64,000 nt of DNA from Mizuhopecten yessoensis (lineage: Eukaryota): assembly GCF_002113885.1 (NCBI RefSeq), contig NW_018407459.1:344227-408226 (forward strand), written 5' to 3'. Both the position numbers and the translations under genes were made by a program. Every line of letters starts with the position of its first letter. Position 1 is the stretch's first letter. The notes under the pieces are model-generated. The model had not been told where the DNA came from. It saw only the letters and a program-made list of their open reading frames with translations, and did no database searches. Below, piece by piece: positions 961 through 44,230 of this stretch.

Positions 961-3900
961 CTGTAAGTTGGTGACATGTCTATCAGCATCGTTCTCCGCT
1001 ATACAGGCCTCCATCACAGATTTGGTGGCAGGATCAACATGACTTGTGGCTAAATCATGCCTGCAGTATAAACAGTAGATGTTAAAGCAACTACAATTTA
1101 ACAACAACTTTTGATCAAGTAGTACATGCAATATAATAGATGTGATGACAGTTTTGTACAGAAACTGCCACCTAAAAAATGATCTGCTTATTACCGCTAT
1201 GACTTTAAATTTAATATAATGGAATTTGAAACAAAATATGGTTTTAAAGACTAGGACAACTCATTAAGCCTGAAGATGTATTTCCAATGACGCCCCTGAT
1301 TTTATCAACAAAGCATGTATCAGTATGATTCAGAAGCTTTCAATCCAAAGCAGACCTGAAGAAAAGGTTGCTGTCACCATATTCCTCCTTCTTGATCCAT
1401 CCTGCAAGTGACAGCAACCCGAGGGCTCGGTCAGGGAAGTGTGTGGCTAGGTGCCATGCTCCATGTCCACCCATAGAGTGACCTAGAGGTAAACAGTACA
1501 TACACATGTATTAGTACGCTGTATAACCAAAACATTCAGCAAATGACACCAATGGAAGAACTTGGTTAGGGAAGTTTGCGACTAGGTGCTGCATCTAAGG
1601 TCAACCCATAGAGTAGTCTAAAGGTTAACAAGTATATATTTATCCTGTTCATTAAGTTTTATCGACGGTAGGGATAACTGTAGCTACTTGCCAGCAAACA
1701 GTACCCTAGAGTTGTCTGCCTTTTCAGTGATCCATTCACAGGACTGAGTTAGCGATACCAGTCTGTCCAGAGCTGCTATAGCCGTGAGACTGCCAGGACC
1801 CTCCCAGTTGTGGGCACCATGTCTGTTTATACATAATACATGAACAATTACGTTCTAGAAATCAAGAATAAAAATATAGTACATATACCATTACTTTGTT
1901 AGCTCTTAGTATTTAAATAAAATCAAAGACATCATTATTTCCTACTTATGGAATTCAATAAAATGATAGAATACTTAGAGTTCAGCTGGTTATAAATATC
2001 AAAACTACAATGTCAAAAGTAACTACATGTACCAATTATTTTTTCGGAAGATTTTCTGCTACACTCACCTTGTTGGAGCCAGCAACCAACCATGTGGGAT
2101 TCCAAATACATATTCTCCATTCCTCATCACCTTGTAGCTGTCAGCCTGGTTCTGTGGTGGAACAGTGGTGCCGTGTAGTGTGAGAAGGGTAGGACAGGCG
2201 GCACCTCCACAGCCACTAATAGGAGCTATGGCTGCTGCATGCTGCACAGATCCATCATGGTCTAAAAATGTAAAGAGGAAGGACTCTCCGGGCTTCCTAC
2301 AGCGGAGATTGACCTTGAAGGGTATGGTCCCCATTGATGTGGTAATGGACAGGATCACATTTAAAGTGGTGCACCTTGTCAACACAATCCCGTTATCGGC
2401 AGTCTCCAATGAAAATAGGACCGACACAGTTTGACCTGGAGCAATATTAACAGGATGGAGCAAATGACTCCTCAGTACATGTCCTTCTGACTGGTCAGTC
2501 ACAGATACCTTGGAAACCCGAACCCATTTAGAATGATGGTTATTTGTCATTGGAACAGCAACATGTTTACCAAATAGGTGACCATTTACAAGATCAGGAA
2601 GGAAGTGAGAAGGGAGAATTTCAAGGCTAGATTCAGGTATCTTTATGGAACACTTGAAAGTTGCAGACACTTTCGAGCGTAGGCGAATGTAGATTGTATG
2701 GACACCCTGCGACAAGTGTGTAGTGGTCCAGAACACATCCCTACGGTATACATCTCCTGTCATTGGTCTGCCATCAATATAAAATGTGTGGACATCCAAA
2801 CACTGGAACACCACCAGCTGGTCTTTCTCATTCACAGCAAACTCCCCTACTACCCAACCCTGCCATTCAGTAATCCCGATGGAACTGAGGGAGTTTACCA
2901 AGTCATTCCAGTTTACTTGTGGGCTTATTTTAATGGTTTCACCAGCAACTGACTGCTTGAATGATTTCCATTTTATTTCTCCTCCAGGAACCAACTCAGA
3001 GAAAAATTTAATATTTTTGTTGTTCCTTTTTTTGGAAACTTCAAAAACACCACCAAACGGTTCCAGTGGATCACCATCAAGCTCCATTTTTCCTATGACA
3101 AATGGTCCAATAAAATCCCAGGAGGTAACAAATGGGCTGACCTTTCCAGACAGTTTTGATGCATGTTTGAAACAGGAGACCGCTTGAGATGTCTGACCTT
3201 TCCTCTGGTAAAGTGTACCAAGTGCAGACCACTGGAATCCATCATTTTCCTTGGCATCCAGTGCAACAAGTATGCATGATATTGCTTGGTCAGTCTGTGA
3301 TAAATTTAGATATGTAAGATATGAATAAGGAAAACTTTTGTACATGAGTAAAGGTCATCAAATTAAATATTAAGAACATACAAATATTTCTCATTACAAA
3401 GGCAAAAAAAATGGAAATGCCTGGCAGTTTTGAAACTGATCCAATTCTTTTTTCACAGCTCAGCGAGAAACAGCTATGCTATACTTCACCACCAAAAGAT
3501 CTTCAATACAAAATACATGATACATAGTAACAAAGCTTTCATTTAAAGTTGAAATGTATTAGATATATCTCTTCAAACACTTTACTTGCTTAAATTATAA
3601 TGTCTCAATAAAATCATGATATAAATTTCAAATTTGATATTGTTGACAATTATGATAACCAGGTATTTTAGACAAAAAATGTGTCATTGTTGATAGGTCC
3701 AATGATGTGTGACACTATGACTAATACAGTTGTATACTGTACCTCCGCTGTCCACCTTAAACGGTTGATGCTGCTTGATGTTATCTTTTTTGGACAAGGT
3801 GCCGTAAACTTCTTCTTTTCTTTGTCTAAAAATTCTCTTACACCCTAAATAGGAAAACAAAAATCTAAATTCACTAAAATTAAATTAACACTGCACATAT

Positions 3901-5415
3901 CCCTGTTATCTGTATTAATTTTGTGGACATTTTGGGTATAAAACTTTTTATTTTTTTAAAGATAGGACCATGCTTAAAATATGGTTGAATAATAGGATTA
4001 TCAACAATAAATTCATTATGTGATTAGCTACTGATCACCCACTGGTATGTTGGACCTCTGGTTTCATGCATAAAATGTACCCCCTACCAAAAATATTTAG
4101 ATACATTTTGTAACTACATTAAATGTGTCTCTCCTAAATAAAATAAAATCCCCTTAAAAAATCCATTATTTAGAAATAATCTAAAATAGTCAAAATATGA
4201 AAAGGTCGAAATAGGGGAATGCCAGCTACCCACCCCCCAGCCACACTTAATCCTAACCCTAAAATGTTCCTGTCTGGGAAAAGAATCAGACCTATTGATA
4301 ATCGCTGAGGCACCCTGCATTTGAAATCTGCTATTTCTCAAGTGTCGCCATCCACATTTTAGAACCACTTATTGAGTTGTTGTTTTTTCAGAATGCTTGA
4401 AGCAGTGAAGAGTCCTGTATCTAGTCTCTAGTGGTCCAGTTTGGTGATGAACTTTGATGTTGGACCTAATCGAAGGCCCTTGAAAGTCCCATACAACAAC
4501 CAAATAAACCTGGTCCTTGCTATACTGTTGATAGATCACTGTTGATGGCAAGTTGTGACTCACATGATCTGTGAGAGCAAAATATGTACTAGTCAAGTGT
4601 TCACAGACGGTATAGCAAGTATCATACTGATATTTTCAATACATTACAATATAATTGTATTACGGTGTTCTCTAGCAGTTCACAGCATACTGAGAAAAGA
4701 ATTACTGGGTGAAATACTAAAAATTTTGTTCAACATAACAAAAATACTGGTCAACATGACATACAAAAATACATAACAGTTATATACATTCTCAGAAGAA
4801 AAAAAGAAAAAAAATTAACTACAACTCACTACACCACACCACTACACTACACCAGAGGTCCTATATCCTGCATGGACACACACTTGAAGTCGTTGACAGT
4901 GCTAAATACCTGGGAGTGACCATCAACAAAGATCTGACCTGGACGAAACATAACAACCAGACAACAGGTAAAGCCTCTAAGACCCTTGGCTTTCTACGAA
5001 GAAATCAGGGGAGATATATACCACCCTAGTTCGACCAACCCTAGAGTATGCATCTCCAGTATGGGATTCACATCACAAACATCAGGGAAATTGAACAAGT
5101 ACAGAGTAGAGCGGCACGGTACTAGCTTCGTCTGTCAATAAACCTATACTATAATCGTATAGGTGTACATGTATTGACAGACGAGGCTAGTACCTGTAAT
5201 ACATGTATTGCCCTATCACTGACAAGTACTCTTGTAGATACACACAATGTTTCAGCTCACAGGAGTCTGAAATTTAGTCACAAATATGTTGACTAAATGT
5301 CAAGCACCTGTAACTTAGGCCAACCGCTTATACTTACGAAACTATCTTTCTTTTTCGATAATGAGATTTGAATAAATGCAGTCACAAAAAGGAGAGGAAA
5401 AATTGTGGTTTTCAT
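961..5415 (-). CDS. Secreted TPR-containing alpha/beta-hydrolase (peptidase S9/esterase-like, uncharacterised); 3' end lies beyond the left edge of the window
   Basis: Exons (minus): 5415-5338 (MKTTIFPLLFVTAFIQISLSKKKDSF, signal-peptide-like), 3844-3743, 3294-2069 (TPR-like FQWSALGTLYQRKGQTSQAVSCFKHA; ...LLTLHGTTV...WLLAPTR), 1822-1692 (HGAHNWEGPG...RVLFAG; GC donor), 1482-1356 (GHSMGGHGAWHLATHFPDRA, GxSxG elbow), 1060-961. Splice phases join into 588 open codons; no stop reached in the window. Confidence 0.85.
4350..4570 (-). mobile_element. Decayed LINE (CR1/L2-type) reverse transcriptase fragment
   Basis: Frameshifted minus-strand translation SCESQLA...DQVYLVVVWDF/SRAFD*VQHQ...KLDH* resembles the non-LTR RT segment SCETQL...QVDxxxLDFSKAFDKVPHxxLxxKLxxY. 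Confidence 0.55.
4860..5118 (+). mobile_element. Decayed LINE (CR1/L2-type) ORF2 C-terminal fragment
   Basis: YILHGHTLEVVDSAKYLGVTINKDLTWTKH...KASKTLGFLRRN / YTTLVRPTLEYASPVWD / IEQVQSRAAR, typical post-RT motifs. Confidence 0.8.
5123..5189. mobile_element. 67-bp palindromic MITE, TAG...CTA ends, GTAC target duplication (Academ-like)
   Basis: tagcttcgtctgtcaata ... tattgacagacgaggcta (1 mismatch), inner stem acctatac/gtataggt; gtac on both flanks (5119-5122, 5190-5193). Confidence 0.65.
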
Positions 5416-5918
5416 CGTTTAGTTTTGCTTGGCTTGACATCAACTCTGTGATCAATATGCTCTTTCCAACCGGTCTGCCAAAATGTAAACAGCAGACCAC
5501 ATGTCAACTTCCTGTTTTGGCGGTGAATAGTGAAAAAACGACCAATATAAACAGAAAAAAATTGTTCGGTTACATGAAAGTTCCGTCATTACATAACGTA
5601 GAATATTAATAAATAATATTCTGAATCAAATACAACTTCAGTATTATAAGTAAAAGGCGTAAAGTAAGGCTACCGGCATTAGTCCTTCGGAACTTTAAAC
5701 AGCAGGTAAAATGTTCATGTTGCACATAAAATGTCAAATATCTTTGATCATGCATACGCTTTAATGTCAAGGGCTCAGCAGTTAAGCATGTAAAGTACAT
5801 TGAATATTGATCACCCGACGCTTCGCAGCCAATGGCAATGTGAAAAACTGATAAAAACACTGGTCTTTGGAATTTGGCCGGTTTCTCTGCTTGCCTGCAC
5901 CGTCCAACAACATTCATT
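5416..5918. promoter_or_regulatory. Putative bidirectional promoter between the hydrolase gene and GNPAT
   Basis: Divergent ATGs about 500 bp apart (5415 minus; 5919 plus, tentative); locally CpG-richer; ETS-like acttcctg near 5507 and ccaat near 5542 and 5829. Confidence 0.5.
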
Positions 5919-8900
5919 ATGGAGGAACAGTCGAGAAACGTTTGGATCAAACAAGGTTCTGGTTTTATATTATATTTCACGTCTTGTTCATTGATTTGAT
6001 GACGTCGTTCATCGTGAAATGATCATACACTAACGATATCATCAGATCATATATATGGTCATCATCATCGAATGCATAAGACCCCATATCTACTGAATCA
6101 AGGACATACCAGCATGCATTATTTAGGACACTCTATGTCATGGGCATGCATCCCTCATAAATGCAATATAAATAGTTTACCCAAACCCCAAAAAGAAACA
6201 ACTGTCAAAATACCTTTATAACTTACAATAATGAATATGACAGCTTTAGGAGATTCTACATCAGGGCAAATATTGCCACATGGATTCCTTCCTTAGTTTG
6301 CAACAGGGGTCTAGTTTTAGAGCGAGTCTGCATGAGCTTTATTTAAATGTTTGTACATAGGTGCACACACAATGGGTGTCAGACGTTTCGCCCCAAAACC
6401 GTTACGCCCCAAACCAGTTCACCCCAAATTTGATTCATATCGCCCAAACCAGTTCGCCCCAAAAACTCCATAACGTCCCAAAAAACCATAGCCCCAAAAA
6501 ACCATAACGCCCAACTAGTTTGCCCCCAAAAAATATAACGCCCCATTCCTAAAAAAAGGAGCTTGCTTATTTTCCCATTTATTTTGTCATTGTGTTTACC
6601 GTGCTTAAAGGGGAATAACTCTTGTTTTGTGTATACTACGGAAAGGTGGGCGCATCGAATATATGCATATTATTTAAGTTTTGCAAAGACGGAATAGTAA
6701 AAGAGATATGTTTCCTTTAACGTTCGTTTTCAGTTTATGTTTCCTTAAGATGTGACTTACGGAAATGTAGCATTGTGTACATTCTTTCATCATACACCGA
6801 CGTGTTAGGCTTTAAAATAAACAACAAATCCATGATTTCATGTGCTATTATAAAGAACATATTTCTTTTAGGTATGTGTACATCTTGTCATCAAACTTTG
6901 ATGCCTGTAGCTATTAAACAAACAGCAAAGCCATATATAACGACAATCTGTAGTAAATTGCTTAGATCAGATAGGCAATTATTTTCCTGGTTCCTGAACA
7001 TTTTGTGTTGCTGCATTGATGGCAGGTGTTATTAGAATAACAACGTTAGGAAACTGTATCCACAAAAATATTAAGTGATGTATTGTGCATGATATATATC
7101 TTGTTATATTATGTTGTATCATTTGTTAATGTAACCTGTTGTTGTTGTAAGTAATTAATAATTAACTCTCTCAATGTATATGTATATTTGTACAATAATA
7201 TTCAGGTATATGTAAAAGATAATGAGATTATTTCCACAAGTGCCGAAGGTAGCTAACGTATCATATCTATAATATCTATGTTAAGCATGCATTTATATAT
7301 TTTAGATCATATATATGTTTAAGTAATTAGATTATTTCCACGCGAAATTATTCGAAACAAGAAATGATTAATTGATATTGACAAGGAAATAGTCACAGCC
7401 CTTAAATTGAAAGAGTTACCTCCCATTACCTGCCTTTTATAGTTCAATATAGGTTCGTAGCGATTGGGTCGATACAGAATTTTTGGGGCGAAACAGATTT
7501 TGGGGCGATATGGTTGTCATACTTGGGGCGAACTGAATTGAAAATAGGGGCGATGTGAAAAAATTTTGGGGCAAACTGGTTTGGGGCGAAATGTCTGTAA
7601 TTCCACACAATCACGAGTTTGTTGACATCATTGTGTTCGTGAAGCAGCCTTATATAACAGGTGAAGTGTTAAAATTAAAAATGGCTTCCTTCTTTGCAGA
7701 ATATGTGTATTAATAGTTTTTAATCAATTTCGAGAATAGGATGACCATTTTGATATTTATTTTCCTAACGTCCTTTAAATCTGATATATCAGAGCTATTG
7801 TACGTATACCAGGTATGTATTCAAAGAAAGTTAAACCTCTTGAATATTGAATGACCTCCCTTGGTGATCATACCTGACAATAACTGTTATCCCCAAGAGG
7901 TAGTTTTAGAAACGCCAGTCTCAACCAAATCCTTCGTTCCATTCTTTTCAATACACTGATGTAAGTCTGACAACACTGCATCAGAAGTCTTCTTATGACC
8001 TATACCTAGTCAATCAGTGCTGCCCACACAGTTTTTGGTATTGGAAAATGTACATGTAACCATACAGGAATGGAAAGAAAGGTCAGCTGATGTAACGCTA
8101 TCAGATCTGATGCTCTAGTTTATTGTAGAAGACCAAAGGCTCTTGAATTTCTACTTTTTATCACTTTTCTGAACAAAATTTCAACTAAGTAGCCCTTCTT
8201 CCTTATTTGCAGTCAACTGGATGATATTTATATAATTTTAACACAAGAAGGGATTTAAATGTAAATTGATTGATTATGAGAAGTTCTTTTTACACAACCA
8301 ATAAAAAATTCTATGGTTGTGTAAAAAGAACTTCTCATAATCCATACTTACCAACCTGAAGAAAATGTTTAGAAAAAATTGATTGATGGTTTCAGATGAT
8401 CCAAAGCTGGTGTCCTCTAGACATAAGGACATATTTGAGGATATTCTAGAGGACCGCAGGCACTCGAGTGATGTCGGATGGTGCCTGCGTACAAGGGATG
8501 TCCCTACATACAAAAACAACAAAACCAGAACAATAGGCCAGATAAAGGAGCATGTCTTGGCCAGTGATCGTGTGAAATATGCTGTTGAACAAGTGAGACT
8601 TCCAGTTAACAAAACTAGTGTTGTTCCAATTAATCAGTGTCTGATCATGTTTCCTTTATAACAGAAAGCTTTTAAGAGTTATTGATAATATAGCAGACCT
8701 GTCAAATGATTTAATGTACAATTTCATTAATAAACATTTTACCATAAACTGCATAAAAATATAAAATGTATCAATATTTTTGTGATTTTCCAAATTTTTT
8801 AATGCTTTCTCTATTCATTTCCTGTTCTTCTTACGATTGAACAAATATGACATTTAAATTGAAAATCGAATAAAAATTATTATTGAGTTCCCTTATTATG

Positions 8901-11900
8901 AATCTTGTTTACAGGTCTGTATGGAAAGTGGACTGCCAACTGATGAGGTGTGGGGTCAAACCAAGGAAATCCTGGAGGAAATGTCACACAACCTTAAACT
9001 TGGTGCTATCAGGGGATTTGCTGTGTTCCTTGTTAAAGTTCTGAAGGCACTATTTAAAAGAATTTATGTCAATGAGGAAGGCATTCAAAAGGTACATAAA
9101 CTTATCAGTAAAGCAGTTTACTAATGTTAAGCCACTGTACCATGATGTACATCTCTTTTCCATACAAACTTGTAAGATAATTTATGATTTTATTTATTCA
9201 AATATGGACTTACCAGGTAGTTAAATTAAAATTCAAAAGAATGCGTTGATTGTTATTAAATAGACCTGTATTATAAGGAAGATGTGAAATAAGGACAATA
9301 ATGACAAAAATCACAGATATAATGCTTAAACCAACATACACTATACAGACGTTGATAACACTTGAGTAGATCTGTACAATAAGGAAAATGTATTAAAATA
9401 AAGGAGAGAACACAAATCACAGGTATGATGTTAAGGTAACATATAGCCTTAAATAAAAGAGTTCTATTACATTTTATTTCATATTTTCAGCATGGTACAA
9501 CCACTGGTACAACATAAGTCATTTGAGAGATGTATATGTACATACTACCTGTCAGTCTTACCAGACAAACAAATAACTTGTCTTCATTTTTTGCAGGTCC
9601 GGGCAATGATTAAAGAGTACCCAATATTGCTGACTCCCAGTCATCGTAGCTACTTTGATTTCCTCCTCATGTCGTTTGTGTTTTATCACTATGATCTACC
9701 ATTGCCTGTCATTGCTGCAGCCATGGGTAAGTATGGTACTGCTTGTAGGAACATCTTATTAATCTCTTTAACCTTTTACCAATTTCTCATGATGTTTATT
9801 TTAAGCAAATTCAAGGCTTGTTTCTTTTATTTTATTGGTTGATGTCATGGTTGATTGAATATCTTATTAATTGTTACAAAAACTAAGTTATATAATAATA
9901 AGTGTTGACACAAAGGATACAATTTAAAAAGTCATGTAGTTTAAATTTACAACCTGTAAAACAAATTATTGAAAGTTTGGAACAACTTCATTCTACTCTG
10001 ATGCTTTCAGATTTCATGGGAATGAAATTCTTCGGATGGCTGTTGAGGAATTCAGGTGCCTTTTACATTCGGCGTAGTTTTGGTGATGACCAGCTGTACT
10101 GGGCTGTTTTCACAGAGTATGTACAGACACAGATATGTAACAGTGATCACCCGCTGGAATTCTACGTGGAGGGCACTCGCAGTAGGACAGCTAAATCATA
10201 CTGTCCAAAGTTTGGTATGTCATCCAAAACTGAACCAGATGGTCTATTTCTTATAACATTTATAACTGCATGTCATATGCATGCTGTCATCTGACATCTG
10301 GACATTTCCTTTCCCAATATTGTTCTGACCAAAGGTCCTACATATTTTTCTATGTTCATATAAACTATAAAATGGCAGTAATATTTTTCCTCTGTACATC
10401 TTTCCTTTATAATGTTCATGTGTTTTACTATTTGTATGGACTTTGAACATGACATGATATAAATATCCTGACACCTTGTTTTCTATCCTTTATGTTTTTC
10501 TCTGTATCAGGAATGCTGTCAGCGTCACTAGAGCCATATTTCAAAGCCCACATTCCTGATATCATGGTCATTCCTGTCAGCATTAGCTATGACAAAATCC
10601 TAGAGGAGAAGCTCTATGCTTACGAATTACTTGGAGTCCCGAAACCCAAGGAGTCCACTTCAGTAAGTGTTTCCAAAAACAAAATGTTAACTTCTGTAGT
10701 TGTTCCATAAAACTGACCAGGTAACATGAGGACATGTTCCCAATCTAGAGGAGTTTAACTCAGTATCTGTTCTTAATATCTAGAAATTAACCTTCTTACG
10801 ACCCTGACCATTCCTGAAAATATTTATCATTTAACTAAGTAAATATACATTAGATTCAGATAGGCCTTTCTTTTAGAAATGTTGTCAATGTGTTTGTAAC
10901 AGAAAATAAGTAATCTTTCGTTTTGAATATACATGTATTATTTGTTGTTTTGTCTTTCTCCATGTCTTTGATGATGCCTAAAAATTTGACTTTTTTTGTC
11001 TATAGAAGGAACATAATCTGTTTGTATGTTCGTAATTAAATTAATTCAGTGGGTTTGATATAACAGACTGAAATCGCAAATAACCTACATTTGTTTTATG
11101 TTTAATAGGCATTGTTTAAAGCGAGAAACATATTGTCAGAAGACTTTGGAAATGTACACATACATTTTGGAGATCCCCTATCAATACGAGAATACTCAGT
11201 CGGCAAAGTAGACCGAAGCATCCACAACCTGGCACCACGGTAACTACTCTCCATCTGTTGGCAGATTTAGATAGACTGAACAGCTACCCTGTCACTTTCA
11301 GTTCTACTTGCATTTTCATATTTAAACCTTTCTAGGAAGGACACTATTGATAGATTTATATATAATGTCGTTTTTATTGACAAAAACACAACTGGAATTA
11401 TAAACTTCACCTGTATTTTATCATAGTGCATTGCATTTATATTGATATCTTAGTGGGGTTTTTTATGCCAAGCTTCCTTATAATTTTTAAAAGGGGATTT
11501 TGAGAAGAACACTAGTTAATCATTGTTTATCATCTTACTATGAAAGGAAAATTAATTTTAGTAATTAAGTCATTCACAGTTCATTATTGCAGTAATTGGT
11601 AGATTTTTTTCTCAACTTTTTAAGAATATTACAGATTTAAAAAAAACACAAGCGTATTTGTGTTTGAACAGGTATATTGCCAGTTTGTCTGCACAAGAGA
11701 CAGATCTACTGAAGAGCCTTGCCTATGATATTGTGTTACTTCACCTCAAACACATGGTTATCTCCCCTTGGTCTTTGACGGCAGCAGTGATGGTACAGAA
11801 CAAGGAGGGCATATCAATGCGACAGCTTGTCCGAGAGGTGGAATGGCTCAAACGCCATGCCTTGAATCTGGGGGCATACATAGACTGGCCAGGTTAGTGA

Positions 11901-14900
11901 GATGTTATTACATAGACTTGCCAGGTTAGTGAGATGTTATTACCTAGACTGGCCAGGTTAGTGAAATGTTATTACATAGACTGGCCAGGTTAGTGAGATG
12001 TTATTACTTAGACTGGCCAGGTTAGTGAGATGTTATTACCTAGACTGCCCAGGTTAGTGAAATGTTATTACATAGACTGGCCACGTTAGTGAGATGTTAT
12101 TACTTAGACTGGCCAGGATAGTGAGATGTTATTACCTAGACTGGCCAGGGTAGTGAAATGTTATTACATAGACTGGCCAGGTTGGTGACATGTTATTACC
12201 TGTTATAGAGCCGTGGGGCATACATAGCCTGGCCAGGTTAGTGAGATGTTATTACCTAGAATGGCCAGGTTAGTGAAATGTTATTACATAGCCTGGCCAG
12301 GTTAGTGAGATGTTATTACATAGTCTTGCCAGGTTAGTGAGATGTTATTACCTAGACCGGCCAGGTTAGTGAAATGTTATTACATAGCCTGGCCAGGTTA
12401 GTGAGATGTTATTACATAGTCTTGCCAGGTTAGTGAGATGTTATTACCGAGACTGGCCAGGTTAGTGAAATGTTATTACATAGCCTGGCCAGGTTAGTGA
12501 GATGTTATTACATAGTCTTGCCAGGTTAGTGAGATGTTATTACCTAGAATGGCCAGGTTAGTGAAATGTTATTACATAGCCTGGCCAGGTTAGTGAGATG
12601 TTATTACCTAGAATGGCCAGGTTAGTGAAATGTTATTACATAGACTGGCCAGGGTAGTGACATGTTATTACCTGTTATAGAGCCGAGGGGAATACATAGA
12701 CTGGCCAGGTTAGTGAGATGTTATCACTTAGACTGGCCAGGTTAGTGAGATGTTATTACTTAGACTGGCCAGGATAGTGAGATGTTATTACCTAGACTGG
12801 CCAGGCTAGGGAAATGGTATTACATAGACTGGCCAGGGTAGTGACATGTTATTACATAGACTGGCCCGGTTAGTGACATGTTATTACCTGTTATATAGCC
12901 TTGGGGCATACATAGACTGGCCAGGGTAGTGACATGTTATTACCTGTTATAGAGCCATGGGGCATACATAGACTGACCAGGTTAGTGACATGTTATTACC
13001 TGTTATATAGCCTTGGGGCATACATAGACTGGCCAGGGTAGTGACATGTTATTACCTAGACCGGACAGGTTAGTGACATGTTATTACCTGTTATACAGCC
13101 TTGGGACATACGTAGACTGGGCAGGTTAGTGACATGTTATTACATAGACTGTCCAGGTTAGTGACCTGTTATTACGTAGACTGGCCAGGGTAGTGACATG
13201 TTATTACCTGTTATAGAGCCTGGGGGCATACATAGACTGGCCAGGTTAGTGAGATGTTATTACCTAGAATGGCCAGGTTAGTGAAATGTTATTACATAGC
13301 CTGGCCAGGTTAGTGAGATGTTATTACCTAGACCGGCCAGGTTAGTGAAATGTTATTACATAGCCTGGCCAGGTTAGTGAGATGTTATTACTTAGACTGG
13401 CCAGGGTAGTGAGATGTTATTACCTAGACTGGCCAGGCTAGGGAAATGGTATTACATAGACTGGCCAGGGTAGTGAGATGTTATTACTTAGACTGGCCAG
13501 GATAGTGAGATGTTATTACCTAGACTGGCCAGGGTAGTGAAATGTTATTACATAGACTGGCCACGTTAGTGAGATGTTATTACTTAGACTGGCCAGGATA
13601 GTGAGATGTTATTACCTAGACTGGCCAGGCTAGGGAAATGGTATTACATAGACTGGCCAGGGTAGTGACATGTTATTACCTAGACTGGACGGGGTAGTGA
13701 CATGTTATTAACTGTTATAGAGCCGTGGGGCATACATAGACTGGACAGGTTAGTGACATGTTATTAACTGTTATAGAGCCGTGGGGCATACATAGACTGG
13801 ACAGGTTAGTGACATGTTATTACATGTTATAGAGCCATGGGGCATACATAGAGTGGCCAGGTTAGTGACATGTTATTACCTAGACTGGGCAGGTTAGTGA
13901 CATGTTATTACCTGTTATAGAGCCTGGAGACCTTCTCTTTGGGAGGGGCTGTATCTTTACACATTGGTCCAATTCCAAAAAATGTATATCTTCTAACAAA
14001 AGTTTACATAGTTAACAATGACATGATCAGAAGCCAGGGTCCAATGTGGTCAGTTTTATCTCCTGAAAAAGCTGGTTATGAATATATGCTTGTAGACATG
14101 TACCATGCTGACAACAACAGAGTGAGTTTGATTTCACACCTAAGATATTCTTGTCACCTTGAATTTACACAATTCATTGCAAGCAAGAAGCTATTATAGT
14201 ATATAAGCCTAATGAAATGTTATTGATCACAGTCGAATAAAGATAAAAAAAATAAACAGGTTTAATGAGAGTTTACACACAAGAGGGTACCATAGGGAAA
14301 ATTTGAAAACATACATCATATAATTATCTGCAGGTTTAAACCTAAAATAAATGACTCATCTTAAACAATTATCTAGATGTTTTGAAGATGTTATTAATTC
14401 AGAATGAATGTATTCCAAACAAGTTAAGTGACTGAAACATGACTAGTTTTACGCTTCGGCTAGGAAGACATTTTTATGTTAACAAAAATCAAACATGTTT
14501 GCACATGTACAGTTAGTTAGAAGTTCACCAGCAGCTGCTGATAAAATGTATAGCTATTCCATTAAGGATGTTTTCACTATTGAATTAGAATGCAAAAAAA
14601 ACATTGGCTCTTGTCAATTTTGCTACACAAATTGTCCATGAGGAGTATCTAACTAAAAGATGGTTATCATGAAGTATTTTGTGACAAGGTTATTAAAGAA
14701 AATACTTCTCGAAATCGTCCAAAAAGTTGTTAAACAAAAGAAAATGACATGGAATTCCTTCAAAAACAGAGTCAAGTCTGGGACATATTTACAAATTTCA
14801 ATTAAGTGCCTAGTTATCCACTGAATACGATACATGGAATGATAAATAAAATACTGATACTAATATGGTAATATTATTATGATTTTGTATTCTACAGGTA

Positions 14901-17312
14901 ATGAATCATCTGACACTGTGGTGAGAAGTACGCTACAACTCCACAAGAATATTGTAGCCATCAACAAAGAGGATGTGATCGAGTTAATATCAATGGATGT
15001 TCCATCACATGTAAGTGAGGACCAATTGATGCAGTCAGCAGCCCAGCATCTGATGCTGTCCATCTACCGCAATCAACTGATGCACATCTTCGTCCGTGTA
15101 GCAATGGTATCCCTGACCATCAATGCCTGCACCCAGGACACTCTTCCCTTAGGTCAGTGTTATATCAAATTAGTTGCTGGTAAATTTTCTTTTCTGCAGC
15201 ATTAAAATATTCATAACAGTTTTAAAGAAATGAAAAAGGGACGTGTGTGCTAGGGATGTATTTCAACTTGTTAATCCATATTTATGATGTATATCAACAA
15301 TCAAAAGTATTAAACTAAAGAGTAATCATTCAAATCTTCTGAAAACATATTACTTTGTTTCTCCATGTTTTATTTTACAGATGACCTTTACAACAAATAT
15401 GTGTTCCTGGAGCACCTTTTAAACAGAGACTTCATTTTCCATCCTGAACACACAAAGCTGGCAAGTACTCTCCCAATTAGGATATTCAAAACAAATTCCA
15501 TACTCTACAAATTAAACAAATATTGTTTTTATTTTACATGACAGTTTAGCATGAAGCACTTACATGTACCATACTCAATTTCAAATAACATTTTAAAAGC
15601 AAATCTGACATGAAATATGTCAGCATGAACTGTTGTCAAATAATTTCCTATTCAGTTTTTATATTGTATCAAAATTGTCCTAATACATCACATTTGCTTG
15701 TAGGACTTTGAGCATTCCCTCCTTACCCTCACACACAACTGTGGTGTTGTAATCAAAGACGATTGCATCCTGATCAAATCCTCCACCAACAAGTACACTA
15801 CATTCTTCAGCCAGATGTTTGAACCCTTCCTCCTTGGATACTGGGTATGTCTTTTTCTTTTGAGAAGATTTCTTTCTCTATTACCTTGTCAAAGATTTGA
15901 AGAGCTCACCCATCTTTCTACCAGTCCATCATTTAGACACAATCTTGTATTTAGTGGTGTTAAAATTTTATATCATTGCTTATAGATATGATTCAGAAAT
16001 GTCTTTTAACAAACATGCATTAGTGTATTATTGCTGATCATATCAAATATTGTTGAAACAAATCTTATGCTTTCATCGTTATAGCTCAAATTTGTCATCA
16101 TGCTACTTTCTAGCTTATTCAATAATGGCCAGTATCTTAATTTTTCTTTCGAAGCATTTATATGTTTTCTTACACTTTTTTTCAGATTATGTGTCGTTGC
16201 CTATTATCATCACACATTGACGTGCATGGTAAACCTAAGGCCAAGCCCCCCAAAGTGATCACTAAGGAGGCCCAGATGTTGAGCGCAAGGCTTTTGAGGG
16301 AAGGGGCTATTAAACACTTAGAAGTTCTCTCCCTTGACATCCTGAGCAACGGGCTCCATGCCCTCCACCACATGAACGCGGTGTCAAAGGAGAAGAGGTA
16401 TACTGAGTAATGTTTGTAATTTACAAAACAACAATATTATCCAACGCTTTTCCCCAAATGAGTCCCTTTTAGTACACTGGAAGTAATTTACATTTTGTAA
16501 TCATGTTCTCAGAAGAGTTACATGTAGCAATAAAAACATATCCTAACATTTAAAAACATAAAACAGTTAGTAGATGTTGAGAATCTCATTATTACTGAAG
16601 ACTATAGATAACCATTAAAACATTTTGAAGTGGATTGTGTTAGAGAATCTTTTAGACTGTGGTGTATGTGCAGTAGCAGTTCTTACAAAACAAAAACCGT
16701 TCTGTTAATGTTTGATCTTGTATGTATATATTGAGTTAACCTAAGTATATATTATGTAATTAATGATGTAGTTATAAGTTCCCTTTGTACTTGACAGAGA
16801 TGGGCAGGCCTATATGTACCCCAACGCCATTGTTCTCACCAACGTCTGTGAACAACTGGGTAAGTCAGGTTTAAAGGAGGGTCTACTTACATTAATCAGA
16901 CAGTTAGTGAAGATATGTCTGATGTTTATCAAAACTAGATTTGAAATGATGCAGTCATTCCTTTTTTTAAAAAAATACAAACCCACTAAATTTTGTTTTC
17001 AATGTTTTTGATATGACTTACTAAGTACTACTTAATATGAACAAAATTATACTCTGACAGGAAAACATTCACACTTGCAGTGGGTATTTTTAATAAAAGC
17101 AACTGGAAAGAGATTTGTTATATACGCTGTATATTCATAATTGGAGTTATATAAACTTCACTTTATTTCAATTTGAAGAAAAAAACAATAATTTTATCTG
17201 ATTGAAAAATGTCTACTTTTCTTTTGTAGAAAAATTCCTTGATGTTCCACAAATTCCCATGACAAGCATTCTGGTGGAATCTAAAACAGTGGTGATCAAT
17301 GCTAAGTTATAG
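5919..17312 (+). CDS. GNPAT: Dihydroxyacetone phosphate acyltransferase (glyceronephosphate O-acyltransferase), peroxisomal
   Basis: Exons: 5919-5955 (tentative first exon, phase-compatible), 8396-8592, 8915-9091, 9597-9726 (PSHRSYFDF, HxxxxD), 10011-10214 (GAFYIRRSF; [10 protein letters not shown]), 10511-10662 ([12 protein letters not shown]), 11109-11239, 11672-11892, 14898-15152, 15381-15460 (GC donor), 15704-15844, 16186-16397, 16798-16859, 17230-17312. About 693 aa ending ...VVINAKL* (PTS1). Confidence 0.95.
6374..7604. mobile_element. Non-autonomous DNA transposon with TIRs and subterminal cgcccca repeats; 7-8 bp TSD
   Basis: Left end gggtgtcagacgtttcgccccaaa plus about 10 cgcccca motifs; right end tggggcg repeats ending tttggggcgaaatgtctgtaattcc; (c)acacaat on both flanks (6366-6373, 7604-7611). 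Confidence 0.8.
11870..13927 (+). repeat. Minisatellite of 32-bp and 56-bp units containing the GNPAT exon-8 end and 5' splice donor
   Basis: Unit catagactggccag|gttagtgagatgttatta (32 bp); longer variant adds cctgttatagagcc(g/t)tggggcata; roughly 55 units by estimate. Confidence 0.95.
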
Positions 17313-17669: not shown

Positions 17670-18275
17670 CTGACAACTGATAATGATGTAAGATCTTGTA
17701 TTACATACTCATCAACTGGTAATGATGTAAGGTCTTGTATAACATACCCATCAACTGATAATGATGTAAGATCTTGTATTACATACTCATCAACTGGTAA
17801 TGATGTAAGGTCTTTTATAACATACCCATCAACTGATAATGATATAAGATCTTATATTACATACTAATCAACGGGTAATGATGTAAGGTCTTGTATAACA
17901 TACTCATCATTGATAATGATGTAAGATCTTGTATTGCATACTCATCAACTGGTAATGATGTAAGCTCTTTTATAACATACCCATCAACTGATAATGATAT
18001 AAGATCTTGTATTACATACTCATCAACTGGTAATGATGTAAGGTCTTTTATAACATACTCATCATTTGATAATGATATAAGATCTTGTATTACATACTCA
18101 TCAACGGGTAATGATGTAAGGTCTTTTATAACATACCCATCAACTGAAAATGATGTAAGTTCTTGTATTACATACTCATCAACTGATAATGATGTAAGAT
18201 CTTGTATTACATACCCATCAACTGATAATGATGTAAGATCTTGTATTACAGACTCATCTCTTGATAATGATGTTA
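17670..18275 (+). repeat. 39-bp minisatellite downstream of the GNPAT stop (probable 3' UTR)
   Basis: Unit aactg(a/g)taatgatgtaag(a/g)tcttgtattacatac(t/c)catc, about 15 copies; produces the spurious 13-aa-repeat ORFs on both strands. Confidence 0.9.
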
Positions 18276-27800: not shown

Positions 27801-30800
27801 CACTTTTAAGGTTACGAGTGTGATATTCATACCAGATGAGTGATGCAGGCCCATTGGGCCTCTTGTATCTAATTTATTGCAAAACCCTACCATTGTTTTG
27901 CTGATGTTTTGCTTATTGTTTAATAGAGGGTTTGAAAACATACACGACATTCTTTCCCTAAAAATATGGTAAAAATTGATAATGTTCAAGGAAACGTGTT
28001 ACAAAATCTCCCTACTTAAAATCCAATTTCCCAACTTCAAAACCCAAATCTACCTACATTGTGTTCCAAAGTCATCACAGGATATGAATAAATTATAGAA
28101 ACTGGAGTTATCTCCCATTTATCGAGTTATTTCACTTAGTTTAAAAACGGACCACTCCGAAACTACTGCACAAATTTAAAGGATACTTTAATTGGTTCAC
28201 AATTCACTTACATCGAGGGATATTGATAAATTATTTAAATTGGTGCTACTTCCCCTTATGAAGGAGATGTGCCCCTTTGTTTAAGAATAAGTTTGCATTT
28301 AAGTGATACTTAATAGTGCACAGAGCCCTTATGTCAAGGTTATATAAAATAGTTGAAACAGAGTTACCTCCCAAATTCATGCAGTAATGCCCCTTTGTTT
28401 AAAAATGACCAGGAAAGAACTATTCCTACAGTTGTTGGCAGAAGCTGAAGGTATTAGTCTGCCATTCTGGCAACAGTTCTAGTTTTGACTGATTCTTTGC
28501 GAAGATGGAGTATCTTAATGCGCTATTCAATTATAGATTGCAGGAGAAAATTAAAATGAACAGACTGGAACGAGAAGAAAAAGAAAAACAGGAAGCCCTA
28601 GCAAGGGAGATACAGAGACGGCAGTCAGGAAAAATGATCGTTAATACGAAACAAAAGTAAGTTGCCATGTCTGTATTTTACACAATCCCATAAGAGAATC
28701 AGTCACACCAATAAATACACACCATCAAATAAAGTAAGAGGAGATGGTATGCTGGAATCACCCTGTCAGTTTGAAGACTGTAAATTGTGCTTATGAAACT
28801 TGATAAATGACTCCCCAAGGAGTGTGGACAATTCCTTACAAATTTGGGGTCGGGAGTGAAAGTCATAATGACCTGTTTTGTAAAAAAAAAATCATTTCTT
28901 GACACTTTAACATTCTTAGTTATACCTCAGAACTTCATAGGATGACTACAAATGGTGTTGGAAGAAATTATTTTTCATTTTCAGAATGGAATTGTATGAT
29001 ATGCATTTTAATCGACCATCACCTACTGATGGTAATTTGGATTATAATTTGATTGGTTTTAAATGCATCTTCTCATTTAGTAACAGATTTATTTGTATGA
29101 AGGAACACATGATATATCTTTTGCACAGATTCGAGGAGGCTGAGATAAAGAAGCTTGCAGAACAGCGACAGAGAGAGAAAAGAGACGATATGGAAGCAAG
29201 GTTTGTACCTTTCATTATGAGTGGCCAAATGTTCAGTTACATAGTCATCAGTTAGCTTTAATAGAGGAACCTTTCTTTTTTTCCCTTAATTAAAATAAAA
29301 CCTGAAAAGGTGACCTGAGACAATTTCCAATATATTCAGTAGTATGCATGTTTTTGTTAGTGTTACTGCCTAATCACTGTCCAGCAAGCGATCATTTCCT
29401 AGTTGATTTCATTTTGATAGTGCACAGGTGTATATCTTGAAAAGGGTTGTAAATTAGTGCACATGTTCATTCTTGTTGAATTTCAGACGGAAAGTAAAAG
29501 AGGCAATAGAGCGTGACAAGGCCGAGAGAGCAGCAAAGGTAACTGTCACTGAGTAAATACATTGAGACTGAGCTAGGCATGTGTTTAATATGTGAATGAA
29601 ATGTCATTCATTTGTTTAGCATAATATTAGATTGTGGCACATCACACTTAAACCTGCCTTCAAGACCACCTAATAAGATAACTTGTCTATTGGACCACCT
29701 GGGTATATTACCAACTTAAAGACTCCAGAAATTATATTTTGCCTTTAATAGTAACATTTAAATAAACATTGATTTTAGTTTTCTCTTGGTTTATTGGAAT
29801 ATTTGATAAATGTACACTGATGATTTCCAAATCTCACAGTAATAAAGATCTTAAACATGAAGTACTTGTATTATATTAACTCTATTTCATCAGAAAAACA
29901 AACCAGATGTTTCCCAGACTGCAGATCCGCAACCTAAACCTGCTGCACCTGTTGAGAAAAAGTCTTACACTGATTGTCAGCTCCAGGTAAGTACACATGT
30001 ACTGATGTCGGTCACAGGTAACATGTTTAGTCTACACCAGCTCCAGGTAAATGCACATGTACTGTATGTCGGTCACCGGTAACAGTTTTAGTCTACACCA
30101 CCTCCAGGTAAATACACCTGTACTGTATGTCGGTCACAGGGAACATTTTTAGTCTACACCAGGTCCAGGTAAATACACATGTACTGATGTCAGTCACAGG
30201 TTACATGTTTAGTCTACACCAGCTCCAGGTAAATACACATGTACTGTATGTCGGTCACAGGTAACATTTTTAGTCTACACCAGCTCCAGGTAAATACACA
30301 TGTACTGTATGTCTGTCACAGATAACATTTTTAGTCTACACCAGCTCCAGGTAAATACACATGTACTGATGTGGGTCACAGGTTACATGTTTAGTCTACA
30401 CCAGCTCCAGGTAAATAAATACACATGTATTTAATGTGTACCAGCTCTGGGTAGATACATCTGCTTTGAATATCAGTTACAATATATTCAAACCAGTGTC
30501 ACCGCTGTGTGTATCAATCTACAAGAGACATCTGTGAGTTAAGACAGGTTGATCATGAAGTCAACAAACTTGTGCTGTCATAATGGAGACGATCAGTTGT
30601 GATGCTAGCTATTGACTGTTCCATAAACAAGAACAAAAACATAAGATACAGTGATTGAACAGCTGTGTACTTGTGCTATACCGGTCTTATGTTAATAAAT
30701 CATGTTAATCAAGTTTACTATGTGATAACATTATATTGTTTTCAGGTAAGAGTTATAGGAAGACCATGATACTGATCGCTGCCCACCTTGTTTTCTGTTG

Positions 30801-35921: not shown

Positions 35922-38488
35922 TCATTGATATTTAACATTTTTTGTGCGAACTATCCATTCCACACCATTTCCATCCTGGTCTACACGAAATGGGAACAGC
36001 AGTTGAAAAGGGATCTTCCAAATGGATCCAAATACTGAGCGGACATTTTCTAGAGATGTCCGTTGGTACCAAGGGATTCCTTTCCAAGCTTCGTAAGATG
36101 TCATACCAGCACAGGCTAGTATGAGCTGCCAACCCAGGAAGAATACGCCACCACAAAGACACATGAAGCAAAAGCAAGAATGAACAATTAGTAACAGTTC
36201 ACCCAAGGAAATATACCCCATAAACATGTAAGCCAGTCCCACCATTGGAATGTACGCAAGTCCATCCCAGGACAAAATTGGAATGGTCTGTGTGGTGTAG
36301 GACAATTGTAGAAACAGGGAGTACAGGTTACCCCACACCATGTATATGCAAAACATGACAAAGAAGCGCTGATTGTAAAAGCCAACACATGAGTTGGTGA
36401 AGAAACAGTGGTGATCTCTCTTGAGTACACAGCGATTGCACAGGCGACAGTGATGGGATCTTGGTGGAGCATCAACCTGTGAACATAGTATGTAAGTATA
36501 AGCATTTATACATAATAACATGTACACCATTTACAATAGGTAAGGTGGTGATACCCTAACAGTATTCCTAAATGTACATGAGCTGTATATTACAGCTAGT
36601 AAAAACAACAATCCTAAAATTTCAAATACATCTACTACATACAACATCTCCAGAAGCAAGTGTGCTTTCCATACAACTTTCTCAGTTTCTTCAATACATC
36701 GGAGTTGTCTGGATTTCATTGGCAAATTAATGCAGAATTACCAGAACCCTGAGGTCCTATATGACAGTATATATATGTACATTACATACATACACGAAAA
36801 CAGATATGTATATCACTTATGTATCGACAGAATGTGCCAATGGACAGAAAATTGGATGATGAAGCTGAATGTGGACAAATGCAAGCATAGAGGAAATTAG
36901 ACAAAAAATCAAGTTATTCAACTACACGCTGACGCAATATGGAGACACCATCGAAATCACTAAGGTAAACAGTGAAAAAGATCTGGGAGTTAACATCGAC
37001 GAAAAACTCATTTTTTCCATACACGTCCAAAAAGCAGCCAGTAAAGCAAACCAAACTGCAGGAATAGTATTTAGAAGTTTTACATATATATGAGCCCACC
37101 CATATTTGTAACACTCTACAAAGCTCTTATACGGCCCCACCTCGAATATGCTTCAACGATATGGTCACCCCTGTATACCAAGGACAAAATTACAATTGAA
37201 AAAGTCCAGCAAAGATCAACGAAAAGAGTACCAACATTAACTGACAAATCATACGCTGAACGTTTAAGAATACTCAGTCTACCAACCCTGGAATACAGGA
37301 GGGAGAGAGCAGACATGGTCAAAGTGTACAGAATCCTCAATAACATTGACAAACTTGATAAGGATAAGCTATTCCAACACTGCGAATACAGATCTACAAG
37401 GGGGCACACCAAGAAGCTGTTTACCGGTAAAAGGCCCTACAAAAAGGAGATCACAGGAAACTTCTTCAGCAATCGCAATATTAAACAGTGAAACTCATTG
37501 CCTGAGGAAGTGGTCTCAGCACCGAGCCTAAACTGCTTCAAGGAAAGACTAAACAAGTGCTGGAGAAATCACCCGAGGAAATTTAACCCATCATTTTGGT
37601 ATTAAATTGCTACACTGCTATGATTAACTTAAGGAAATACTAAGTGGAAAAAGGTAAGTCGCGAGTGAGTGAAATAACAATGATGCATCACCACAAGCTT
37701 GAACTAGCTTTCAACGATGCTACATCAGCATTTCAGCAATTATATTTGTTGGGCTAATATGGGTAATAATATATGTAGTGATCATTTATGTGCAATGCAG
37801 GTGTCACTTCCCTTATAACCTACCTCCTGTGCGCAAACACACATGCAATTACATACATAACGGTACACAGATTAAGGCGCGTCCTTAAATTAGATGTTAA
37901 CTGGACGTTAAACTCTCTAAAAACCATCATAAAAAGACTTGGACTTGAGCAAGTCTGTTAAATATATATAGAAACAGATATATGTATTCGTGATCAAATG
38001 CAGAGTTGAACTCCTAATACTGGAGTGTAATTAATTCATTGCTTGGTATGAATTGGTATTTGATCAATTATTGCTACCATACACTGGTGGGTTTTTTTTT
38101 TTTGTTTCAATGACAATTTACTCACTTGACATTTAGGACAGTTGATCCAGCCGGGTGGCGTCTCCGCGGTTCCGGGAAATTTTTCTTCCTTTATTTCGGA
38201 TGTCACAAAATTATTTTGCCCGAAATACGTGCCCATCCAATTGATTGTACACTCAAATAAGGTGAACCAGACTAGGACTGTGTTTATTACCATGGACCAA
38301 GTGTCGCCCCAGTACAATTTTGGAACGAGAAAAAACTGACTCTCAAAAAACAAGGAAAATACCATTCCCCAGAAGAACATCTGTCCATATCGACTGGCAT
38401 CTTTTTCGTCTGTTTGGAAATTGCGTTTGTGATAATGGTTTGTTAACTTTTCTTTCAGAGTATCTGCCTTTCTCTCTCTGAGTTCCAT
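35922..38488 (-). CDS. DHHC-type protein S-palmitoyltransferase (ZDHHC22/24-like)
   Basis: Exon 1 38488-38126 (MELRERKADT...GWINCPKCQ|gtgagt), exon 2 36476-35922 (cag|VDAPPRSHHCRLCNRCVLKRDHHCFFTNSCVGFYNQRFF...GMTSYE...ENVRSVFG); about 305 aa with TM segments on both sides of the DHHC-CRD. Confidence 0.92.
36825..37610 (+). mobile_element. 5'-truncated CR1/L2-type LINE (ORF2 3' end) in the ZDHHC intron, antisense to the gene
   Basis: WTENWMMKLNVDKCK / EKDLGVNIDEKLIFSIHVQKAASKAN / LYKALIRPHLEYASTIWSP...IEKVQQR...YAERLRILSLPTLEYRRERADM...TRGH / NSLPEEVVSAPSLNCFKERLNKCW; frameshifts and stops. Confidence 0.9.
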
Positions 38489-43117: not shown

Positions 43118-44230
43118 ATGTTGCCAGTCGGTAAGTCAATATGTACATTGGACGAGGATGATATGTGTGACCTTGATGACTTTGAATCTTCGTCTTCGAA
43201 CATAGACTTGTTCGAAGGTGAAGAAACTAGCTCGTTTGATTTATTTGACGGTCTGTTGGAAAGAGAAACGGACACAAAAGAAATCAAACCAAAAAACTCT
43301 AACGATAAGAAGCGCTCAGTCGTACGTGTTTATCCTAATGGCGACACCCAAGAAAAACAGCTAAATTTTGCAAGTATTAGAACATTAGAAGAAAAAGAAT
43401 TAATTGATTACTTGGGTAATGGAAATCGAGGACGTCTGATTTCCCGGTCCAGTAACGTTACTTGCAAGAATTCGCGACGTTCGAACACGACAAACGGGAA
43501 ACGCTCAAGTTCGAATGACAGTGTGAAATCAAGCTCACCAGTGGGTTTAGAATCTCGTGACGGCGCATGCATGACCAAGAGTGCTGTTGCAGCTCGCGAA
43601 AACCGCAAAAAGAAAAAGAAATACACAGAAGAACTAGAAACAACAGTTGATATACTGAAGACAGAAAATACAGGTCTCAAAACTAGAAACAATATGTTAC
43701 AAACGTCATTGGATCAGCTGAAAACAGAAGTTCAATATTTGAAAAGCGTGATAGCTAACCAAACAACGTTGGCACACTTGATTGGCAATATACAAAATAC
43801 ACCAGGTGTTAAATTCCAGACTTCATTAACAGTTGATAGATATGACAAAGAAAATATTAAGGACATAAATGAAAACACAGTTGATAAGTCTGTAAGTGTA
43901 CCAGTAGCAACAAAAAAACGCAAGGTTGAAGATGCACATGTCCCTACAATGCAAATGAATACAAGGTATGGGAAACTCAAAAGGGGTACCAGTACTACTT
44001 CAAAAGAAATAAAACCAGAAAAGATGGATGACCAATGTGATTCATCACCTTCATCAACATTAGAACAAAATTCCAATGAAATGCCGGGCCATGGACCAGC
44101 TGGTATATGTCTCCATGTTTCTAATGGATCTGTGTCTTTGGAATTCTGTGCAAATTGTGCTTCCAGTGCTGCTCATGCCAAGGCTATCACCTGTGACCAT
44201 TCCTATGGAAAGGTTCAGGGAGAAGGGTGA
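43118..44230 (+). CDS. CREBZF: CREB/ATF bZIP transcription factor (Zhangfei)-like, single coding exon
   Basis: 370-aa ORF; acidic N-terminus; basic region KSAVAARENRKKKKKY followed by a leucine zipper (...EVQYLKSVIANQTTL); C-terminal GICLHVSNGSVSLEFCANC motif characteristic of CREBZF; DHSY motif. Confidence 0.9.
   Translation: MLPVGKSICTLDEDDMCDLDDFESSSSNIDLFEGEETSSFDLFDGLLERETDTKEIKPKNSNDKKRSVVRVYPNGDTQEKQLNFASIRTLEEKELIDYLGNGNRGRLISRSSNVTCKNSRRSNTTNGKRSSSNDSVKSSSPVGLESRDGACMTKSAVAARENRKKKKKYTEELETTVDILKTENTGLKTRNNMLQTSLDQLKTEVQYLKSVIANQTTLAHLIGNIQNTPGVKFQTSLTVDRYDKENIKDINENTVDKSVSVPVATKKRKVEDAHVPTMQMNTRYGKLKRGTSTTSKEIKPEKMDDQCDSSPSSTLEQNSNEMPGHGPAGICLHVSNGSVSLEFCANCASSAAHAKAITCDHSYGKVQGEG

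Follow-up and report, generated by a model that had tools for sequence, protein, structure and literature searches.

Which 5' splice site is used when an intron carries dozens of head-to-tail copies of its own donor, and does the number of copies matter for the host gene? Both questions are raised by a GNPAT-like locus in a 64,000-nucleotide stretch of the Mizuhopecten yessoensis genome (contig NW_018407459.1, positions 344,227 to 408,226), hereafter called the window, whose numbering is used throughout.

The host gene and the anatomy of the array

The features on which the analysis rests are as follows.

8396..17312, forward strand: GNPAT-like gene modelled as 13 coding exons (first exon not located), forming one open frame with 11892 and 14898 joined and ending in AKL-stop
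11672..11892, forward strand: coding exon whose 3' end seeds the array; GPAT_C match (E 1.7e-08), RNA depth and a 5' junction
11868..11892, forward strand: exon letters copied into the units, the last 25 nt in 56-bp units and the last 13 nt in 32-bp units
11890..11898, forward strand: authentic donor CAG/GTTAGT, matching the U1 consensus at 8 of 9 positions; RNA reads and contigs join the exon end to 14898
11893..13927, forward strand: minisatellite of 45 units of 32 bp, 10 units of 56 bp and a terminal unit, delimited by unit parsing and TRF; units also present in DNA runs X1 and X6
11895..11897, forward strand: in-frame TAG encountered by every transcript passing the first donor
12181, 12653, 12869, 12925, 12981, 13069, 13189, 13693, 13749 and 13805, forward strand: starts of the 56-bp units
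13893..13927, forward strand: terminal unit with the CTGG microhomology at its end, putatively the original intron start
14898..15152, forward strand: next exon with its acceptor; GPAT_C match (E 9e-09) and RNA

The Pfam domains Acyltransferase and GPAT_C are both matched by single exons of the host gene, and one exon matches a 901-amino-acid glycerol-3-phosphate acyltransferase with an E value of 6.7e-10, as against only 0.018 for mitochondrial GPAT1. The encoded protein ends in AKL, which we take to be a PTS1 peroxisomal signal. Because of this combination of domains, the preference for the glycerol-3-phosphate acyltransferase over GPAT1 and the AKL terminus, the sequence evidence makes it likely that the product is GNPAT, the peroxisomal DHAP acyltransferase. 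A protein atlas annotates the same product as 'acyltransferase' and nothing finer. The exon compared with GPAT1 has one match in the genome among three candidates, indicating a single-copy gene, whose junctions 10662-11109, 11239-11672 and 15152-15381 are present in RNA. The exon that seeds the array is the seventh coding exon of our model, and RNA contigs extend the transcript by 30 and 97 nt beyond the modelled gene start, so that the number eight that the initial annotation had given to this exon is plausible without being fixed.

Unit-by-unit parsing resolves 56 donor-like positions from 11893 to 13927, namely the authentic donor and 55 copies, separated by spacings of 32 bp (45 times) and 56 bp (10 times). 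TRF independently reports a period of 32 with 59.1 copies at 11877-13710 (score 2016) and further 56-bp rows to 13913, and the two approaches together confirm the roughly 2-kb array with about 55 donor copies and two unit sizes that had been proposed. The units comprise 33 distinct sequences, contain no N and have a mean pairwise divergence of 8.9% over 31 shared letters. That most copies are identical to the real donor, as had also been proposed, holds for the motif CAG/GTTAGT, which is kept at 34 of the 56 positions (33 of the 55 downstream copies, all of these with 8 of 9 matches to U1), but not over the longer stretch of 12 exon and 6 intron letters, where only 7 of 56 positions (6 of 55 downstream) are identical to the authentic donor. 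The GT dinucleotide itself is kept at 38 of 56 positions (37 of 55 downstream) and lost in 18 of the 55 downstream copies, where GG (11), GA (4) and GC (3) represent all three substitutions at position +2.

Within the 64-kb window, CAGGTTAGT is confined to the array on either strand. Furthermore, a 20-nt junction pattern has seven matches in the 988-Mb genome, all seven inside the array (reversed control, none), and all eight matches of a DNA search of the genome likewise fall inside it, with repeat counts in these searches being lower bounds. As neither search finds a copy elsewhere in the genome, we rule out that a dispersed satellite landed in this intron. The array is thus locus-specific, with a first unit that spans the real exon-intron boundary and a donor that is repeated head-to-tail into the intron.

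Origin of the two unit sizes

The 56-bp unit combines the last 25 letters of the exon with the first 31 of the intron, the two parts meeting at CTGG (11868-11871 and 13924-13927), and unit 37 retains this CTGG junction without mutation. In the 32-bp unit, 13 exon letters meet 19 letters of the intron at TAC[A/C]T, where the variable base is mostly A, as in the exon (21 of 56), or C, as in the intron (27 of 56). The microhomologies put forward in the initial annotation therefore stand for the 32-bp unit, whereas 'gcct.g' has to be replaced by CTGG for the 56-bp unit; after this correction of register, an origin from microhomology is supported. Both the 56-bp units and a C at intron position +9 are concentrated in the middle and at the 3' end of the array, as in the terminal unit.

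The array likely started with a short tandem duplication across the exon-intron junction. The 56-bp duplication may have come first, in an order that is not proven, and the 32-bp unit would then be the product of a 24-bp deletion within it; slippage or unequal crossover could subsequently have multiplied and reshuffled the units.

The array in other samples

Sequencing reads were checked in 6 of 20 runs, comprising DNA runs X1 and X6 (two studies) and RNA runs X11, X13, X19 and X20 (three studies); X17, X18 (both with a share of 0.00) and ten more of the listed runs were left aside. Reads were compared with the two array flanks, each including two or three units. In both DNA runs the single-copy flank contig stops at 11900, at depths of 12.9 (X1) and 12.3 (X6), and unit words continue beyond it at many times the single-copy depth; a flank contig of 3655 letters in X6 ends in an array unit.

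The units present in these runs differ from those of the window. At position 11901, C accounts for all of the depth in X6 (457.8 of 457.8) and for 444.5 of 588.5 in X1, and G or A occupies this position in 38 of the 55 window copies. One 31-letter unit with an intact donor reaches a depth of 246.7 in X6 against the single-copy 12.3, or about 20-fold, and has no copy in the window, and a 56-bp variant that the window lacks reaches depths of 56 (X1) and 68.6 (X6). X1 also holds units of the window type, without differences, at a depth of 35.1. Summed contig depth gives no exact copy number, and one DNA run may derive from the source sample; the variation shown among the window, X1 and X6 is one of unit composition. 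No read or contig in X1 or X6 spans the array, and the length and unit order given here are those of the assembly. Since both DNA runs hold the array with a different unit mix, it exists in other samples, is polymorphic and is not an assembly artefact, the outcome that the initial annotation had named as its refutation.

Donor choice in RNA

Raw RNA reads were drawn from X19 and X20, which belong to one study and of each of which 19% was sampled, with 12 and 24 reads, respectively, on 10450-11960. Junctions were reported from at least three reads, assembled contigs drop rare forms, and NMD, which was not blocked in these runs, would deplete stop-containing RNA. Three reads of X20 leave the first donor at 11892 and continue into the exon at 14898 for a median of 45 letters, neighbouring junctions of the host gene being covered by 2-8 reads each, and no loose ends at donors 2 or 3 are found among the X20 rows listed. 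X19 has no row at the first-donor junction. Contigs of X11 (depth 26; its RNA status is a guess) and X13 (depth 90.1) also connect the genuine end of the exon with 14898, and in none of the four RNA runs, at low depth, does a listed joint connect an array unit to 14898. At this depth, mature mRNA is made mainly from the first donor, with minor use of downstream donors possible; the three reads alone, all three from the first donor, would leave room for a large minority use of downstream sites.

Any transcript that bypasses the first donor is predicted to read Pro-Gly-stop, the TAG at 11895-11897 bearing out the proposed CCA GGT TAG. The acceptor-like sites proposed for the 56-bp units likewise hold as sequence features: each of the ten units has an AG 26 or 28 nt ahead of the donor that follows, and either predicted frameshifting micro-exon would lead to a stop 5-10 codons later. 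The pyrimidine share of these candidate acceptors, 0.59-0.65, lies at the low end of the range of 22 modelled acceptors of the window (0.53-0.88). Neither micro-exons nor read-through appear among the RNA forms listed for X11, X13, X19 and X20.

Masking of the downstream donors by RNA folding was rejected because the results are inconsistent: in a 100-nt window, the first donor is less open than 15 of the 33 downstream CAGGTTAGT sites, and in a 200-nt window the count depends on the site considered (2 of 33 for a 9-nt site, 20 of 33 for a 6-nt site). Partial text of PMC1557585 describes a precedent in the VNTR of human F7 intron 7, whose pseudo-donors can function but are outcompeted by the most upstream site. 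By analogy with F7, first-donor preference in the scallop array would be set by position rather than by sequence or folding. Where splicing slipped into the array, the transcript would include the stop at 11895, and its removal by NMD would make the array less costly. Of the two outcomes entertained in the initial annotation, the picking of the first donor is consistent with all junctions seen and with the F7 precedent, and a tuning of productive versus NMD-targeted mRNA through copy number finds no junction support in any of the four runs.

We therefore consider it probable that the array is a real, locus-born and polymorphic splice-donor minisatellite in a likely near-neutral intron; since the first donor is the one used in the mRNAs seen, near-neutral persistence of the array is likely. 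Against this reading stand the raw junction support of three reads from one run, a weak excess of X20 reads in the array and the 18 GT losses among 55 copies. In addition, human 6-16 and CBS use two proximal pseudo-donors, and the experiments behind the scanning rule were confined to mammalian cells.

These same observations bear on an unlikely alternative, in which proximal or internal donors or micro-exons are used measurably, the resulting stop-containing RNA decays and GNPAT output depends on the allele, without selection. The excerpts of PMC1557585 provide precedents on both sides, as repeats in LMNB2 and PDGF are spliced from the authentic donor only and those of 6-16 and CBS from two pseudo-donors as well, and the scallop array offers 33 downstream sites with an 8/9 match to U1. 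In X20, about 10 reads lie inside the array, 7 of them across a 56-bp unit junction with 3-4 starts, and some 2.1 kb of unique intron has no depth, with the exception of 5 reads at 14017-14062 that carry unrelated sequence on both sides. The probability of such an excess by chance, for 3-5 independent fragments, is 0.03-0.12 for a 2-kb array and 0.12-0.28 for one of 4 kb, and the excess is compatible with extension of the exon into the array, with a longer allele and with slow splicing of the intron. However, no downstream junction is listed in the four RNA runs, X19 has no reads inside the array, and X13 has no array words beside its mRNA contig of depth 90.1. In X11, array words occur together with a contig of unique intron (depth 4.94), and they therefore represent unspliced RNA or DNA.

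The three separate GT-breaking changes at +2 could also be read in favour of leaky splicing, and the loss of GT may be suggestive of selection against donors. Yet, tested on the dinucleotide, the loss does not reach significance (P 0.21), and X6 has about 20 intact copies of one unit. Selective purging of donors as such was not accepted, as the P value of 0.02 pertains to a +2 column chosen post hoc and the units are not independent. We give little credence to a stronger version, in which the number of intact donors would set the share of GNPAT pre-mRNA diverted to stop-containing, decaying forms, as a heritable dose dial for ether-lipid synthesis in which GT-breaking variants would spread as suppressors.

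Donor arrays elsewhere in the same genome

A second donor array is found in the window at 29978-30417, where seven units of 60/61 bp start from the donor (29986) of an exon of a UBX-domain gene, and a third, probable one is located roughly 90 kb upstream of the window. In a survey of 180 kb of the contig we counted 30 merged arrays, two of which clearly start at a modelled donor, with one more probably following an exon; four other frames upstream of surveyed arrays have no Pfam match at E<0.1, and no rate was derived. The array in the UBX-domain gene and the probable third one speak for a mutational process that acts generally in this genome, not for a device specific to GNPAT.

This bears on the proposal that donor choice controlled by tissue or condition, or a selected copy number, sets the level of ether-lipid synthesis. 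GNPAT is called a rate-limiting enzyme in the available text of PMC13654497, the gene is single-copy and every alternative outcome leads to a stop, all of which would suit such control. No alternative junction was seen, however, unit content differs strongly between samples, and the same kind of array in an unrelated gene of the window argues for a mutational process. A stop immediately behind the donor is, moreover, common in AT-rich introns, and we regard regulated control as very improbable. It is more improbable still that the assembler inflated or invented the array: the 82,659 contigs of the assembly, the unit variants common in reads but missing from the window and the lack of a read or contig across the whole array would speak for it, but they are countered by 33 distinct unit sequences without N, by unit words at many times single-copy depth in both DNA runs, including window-type units in X1, and by the 3655-letter X6 contig that runs into a unit.

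Relation to known systems and significance

The probable near-neutral minisatellite described here belongs to a known class: all five class features tested are present, and the array is a splice-donor-spanning minisatellite of the F7/CBS type, or 'mirage'. As far as the consulted parts of PMC1557585 (Borensztajn et al. 2006) extend, the 37-bp VNTR of F7 shares with it a first unit over the exon-intron boundary, a repeated donor and polymorphism, as well as use of the most upstream donor alone, which in the scallop array holds as far as seen at low depth. The two differ in the number of units (5-9 in F7, 56 here), in the exon letters per unit (4 against 13 or 25) and in having one or two unit sizes; the scallop copies are more diverged, a third of them without GT, and the experiments on scanning concern F7.

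The 31-bp VNTR of CBS intron 13 and the 6-16 minisatellite are closer in unit size (31 against 32 bp) and in carrying much exon sequence per unit (portions of PMC1557585 and PMC2630376). CBS alleles contain 16-21 units of 31 bp (PMC2630376, in part), and CBS and 6-16 carry 15-25 pseudo-donors, two of which are used besides the authentic site (PMC1557585, in part); in the scallop array, at low depth, none was seen in use. In lancelets, excerpts of PMC3087553 describe mirages as variable tandem copies of exon-intron boundaries that leave splicing undisturbed. The examples given there (Adh3 and the globins BflGb6 and BflGb9) share with the scallop array the duplication of boundaries in an invertebrate, some units without splice signals and several loci per genome; their length varies between haplotypes, and RT-PCR indicates normal splicing. 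The scallop array differs by phylum, by its larger number of units and by two interleaved unit sizes from two microhomologies. No published report of this locus was found among the titles and abstracts listed, subscription papers and supplements aside, and the accessible parts of PMC13050634, PMC2812944 and PMC10078293 contain no description of the array.

The locus extends a described class of arrays by a further invertebrate example, and its importance would be greater only if array alleles changed GNPAT output. It suggests that, beyond mammals and lancelets too, the first donor is preferred in the face of more than 30 strong competitors, and the array provides a natural substrate for tests of donor choice and, likely, a length marker.

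Further donor-associated arrays

Two further arrays on contig C4132, which carries the window, have units resembling splice donors (the bar separates exon end from intron start):

Window 29978-30417, plus strand: second donor-spanning array, seven 60/61-bp units
L018:2118-2345 (a stretch of C4132; G000:C4132 ~246.3-246.6 kb in the searched genome), minus strand: 29-bp array of CAG|GTAAGT/GTAATT units

The first unit of the second array begins where an exon of a UBX-domain gene ends, at 29986, and the authentic donor there is CAG|GTAAGT; GTAAAT is present in all copies, and by this A at +5 they are predicted to be weaker donor sites than the authentic one. The L018 array starts ~30 bp past a probable 84-nt exon (L018:2378-2461), which is bounded by AG..GT and returned no match in a Pfam search, and the array is likely a third, more degenerate case.

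Minisatellites along the contig

Minisatellite density is very high across the 180 kb of C4132 covered by stretches L009-L020 and the window, with 30 merged arrays of period at least 15. Arrays make up most of L015-L018, and in L017 a single 58-60-bp unit occurs in inverted blocks. Two further arrays are:

L014:5286-6121: 46-bp unit containing CAG|GTAGA, 18 copies at 100% identity
Window 17674-18273: 39/78-bp minisatellite just 3' of the GNPAT-like stop codon

The former, flanked by purine-rich sequence on both sides, has either expanded very recently or been created in assembly; the latter possibly lies in or after the GNPAT-like 3' UTR.

Gene structures in the window

The following features concern the GNPAT-like gene and other putative genes and elements, all but the first read by eye:

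15461-15703: GC-AG intron of the GNPAT-like gene, donor CTG|GCAAGT
1000-4600, minus strand, and 5400-5960: apparent minus-strand gene and candidate first coding exon of the GNPAT-like gene
36000-36480, minus strand: exon, presumably DHHC-type palmitoyltransferase-like
36900-37600, plus strand: decayed end of what we take to be a LINE-like reverse transcriptase
43119-44230, plus strand: intronless open frame with a stretch we assume to be bZIP-like

The LINE-like remnant sits within an intron of the DHHC-type-like minus-strand gene. At the GC-AG intron, loose RNA ends at 15461 continue into the letters of the next exon in all four runs. The apparent minus-strand gene and the GNPAT-like gene appear to start head-to-head at ~5400-5900, and the candidate first coding exon of the latter, whose ATG is at ~5919 and whose phase-1 donor is at ~5955 (also read by eye), would fit the GNPAT frame.
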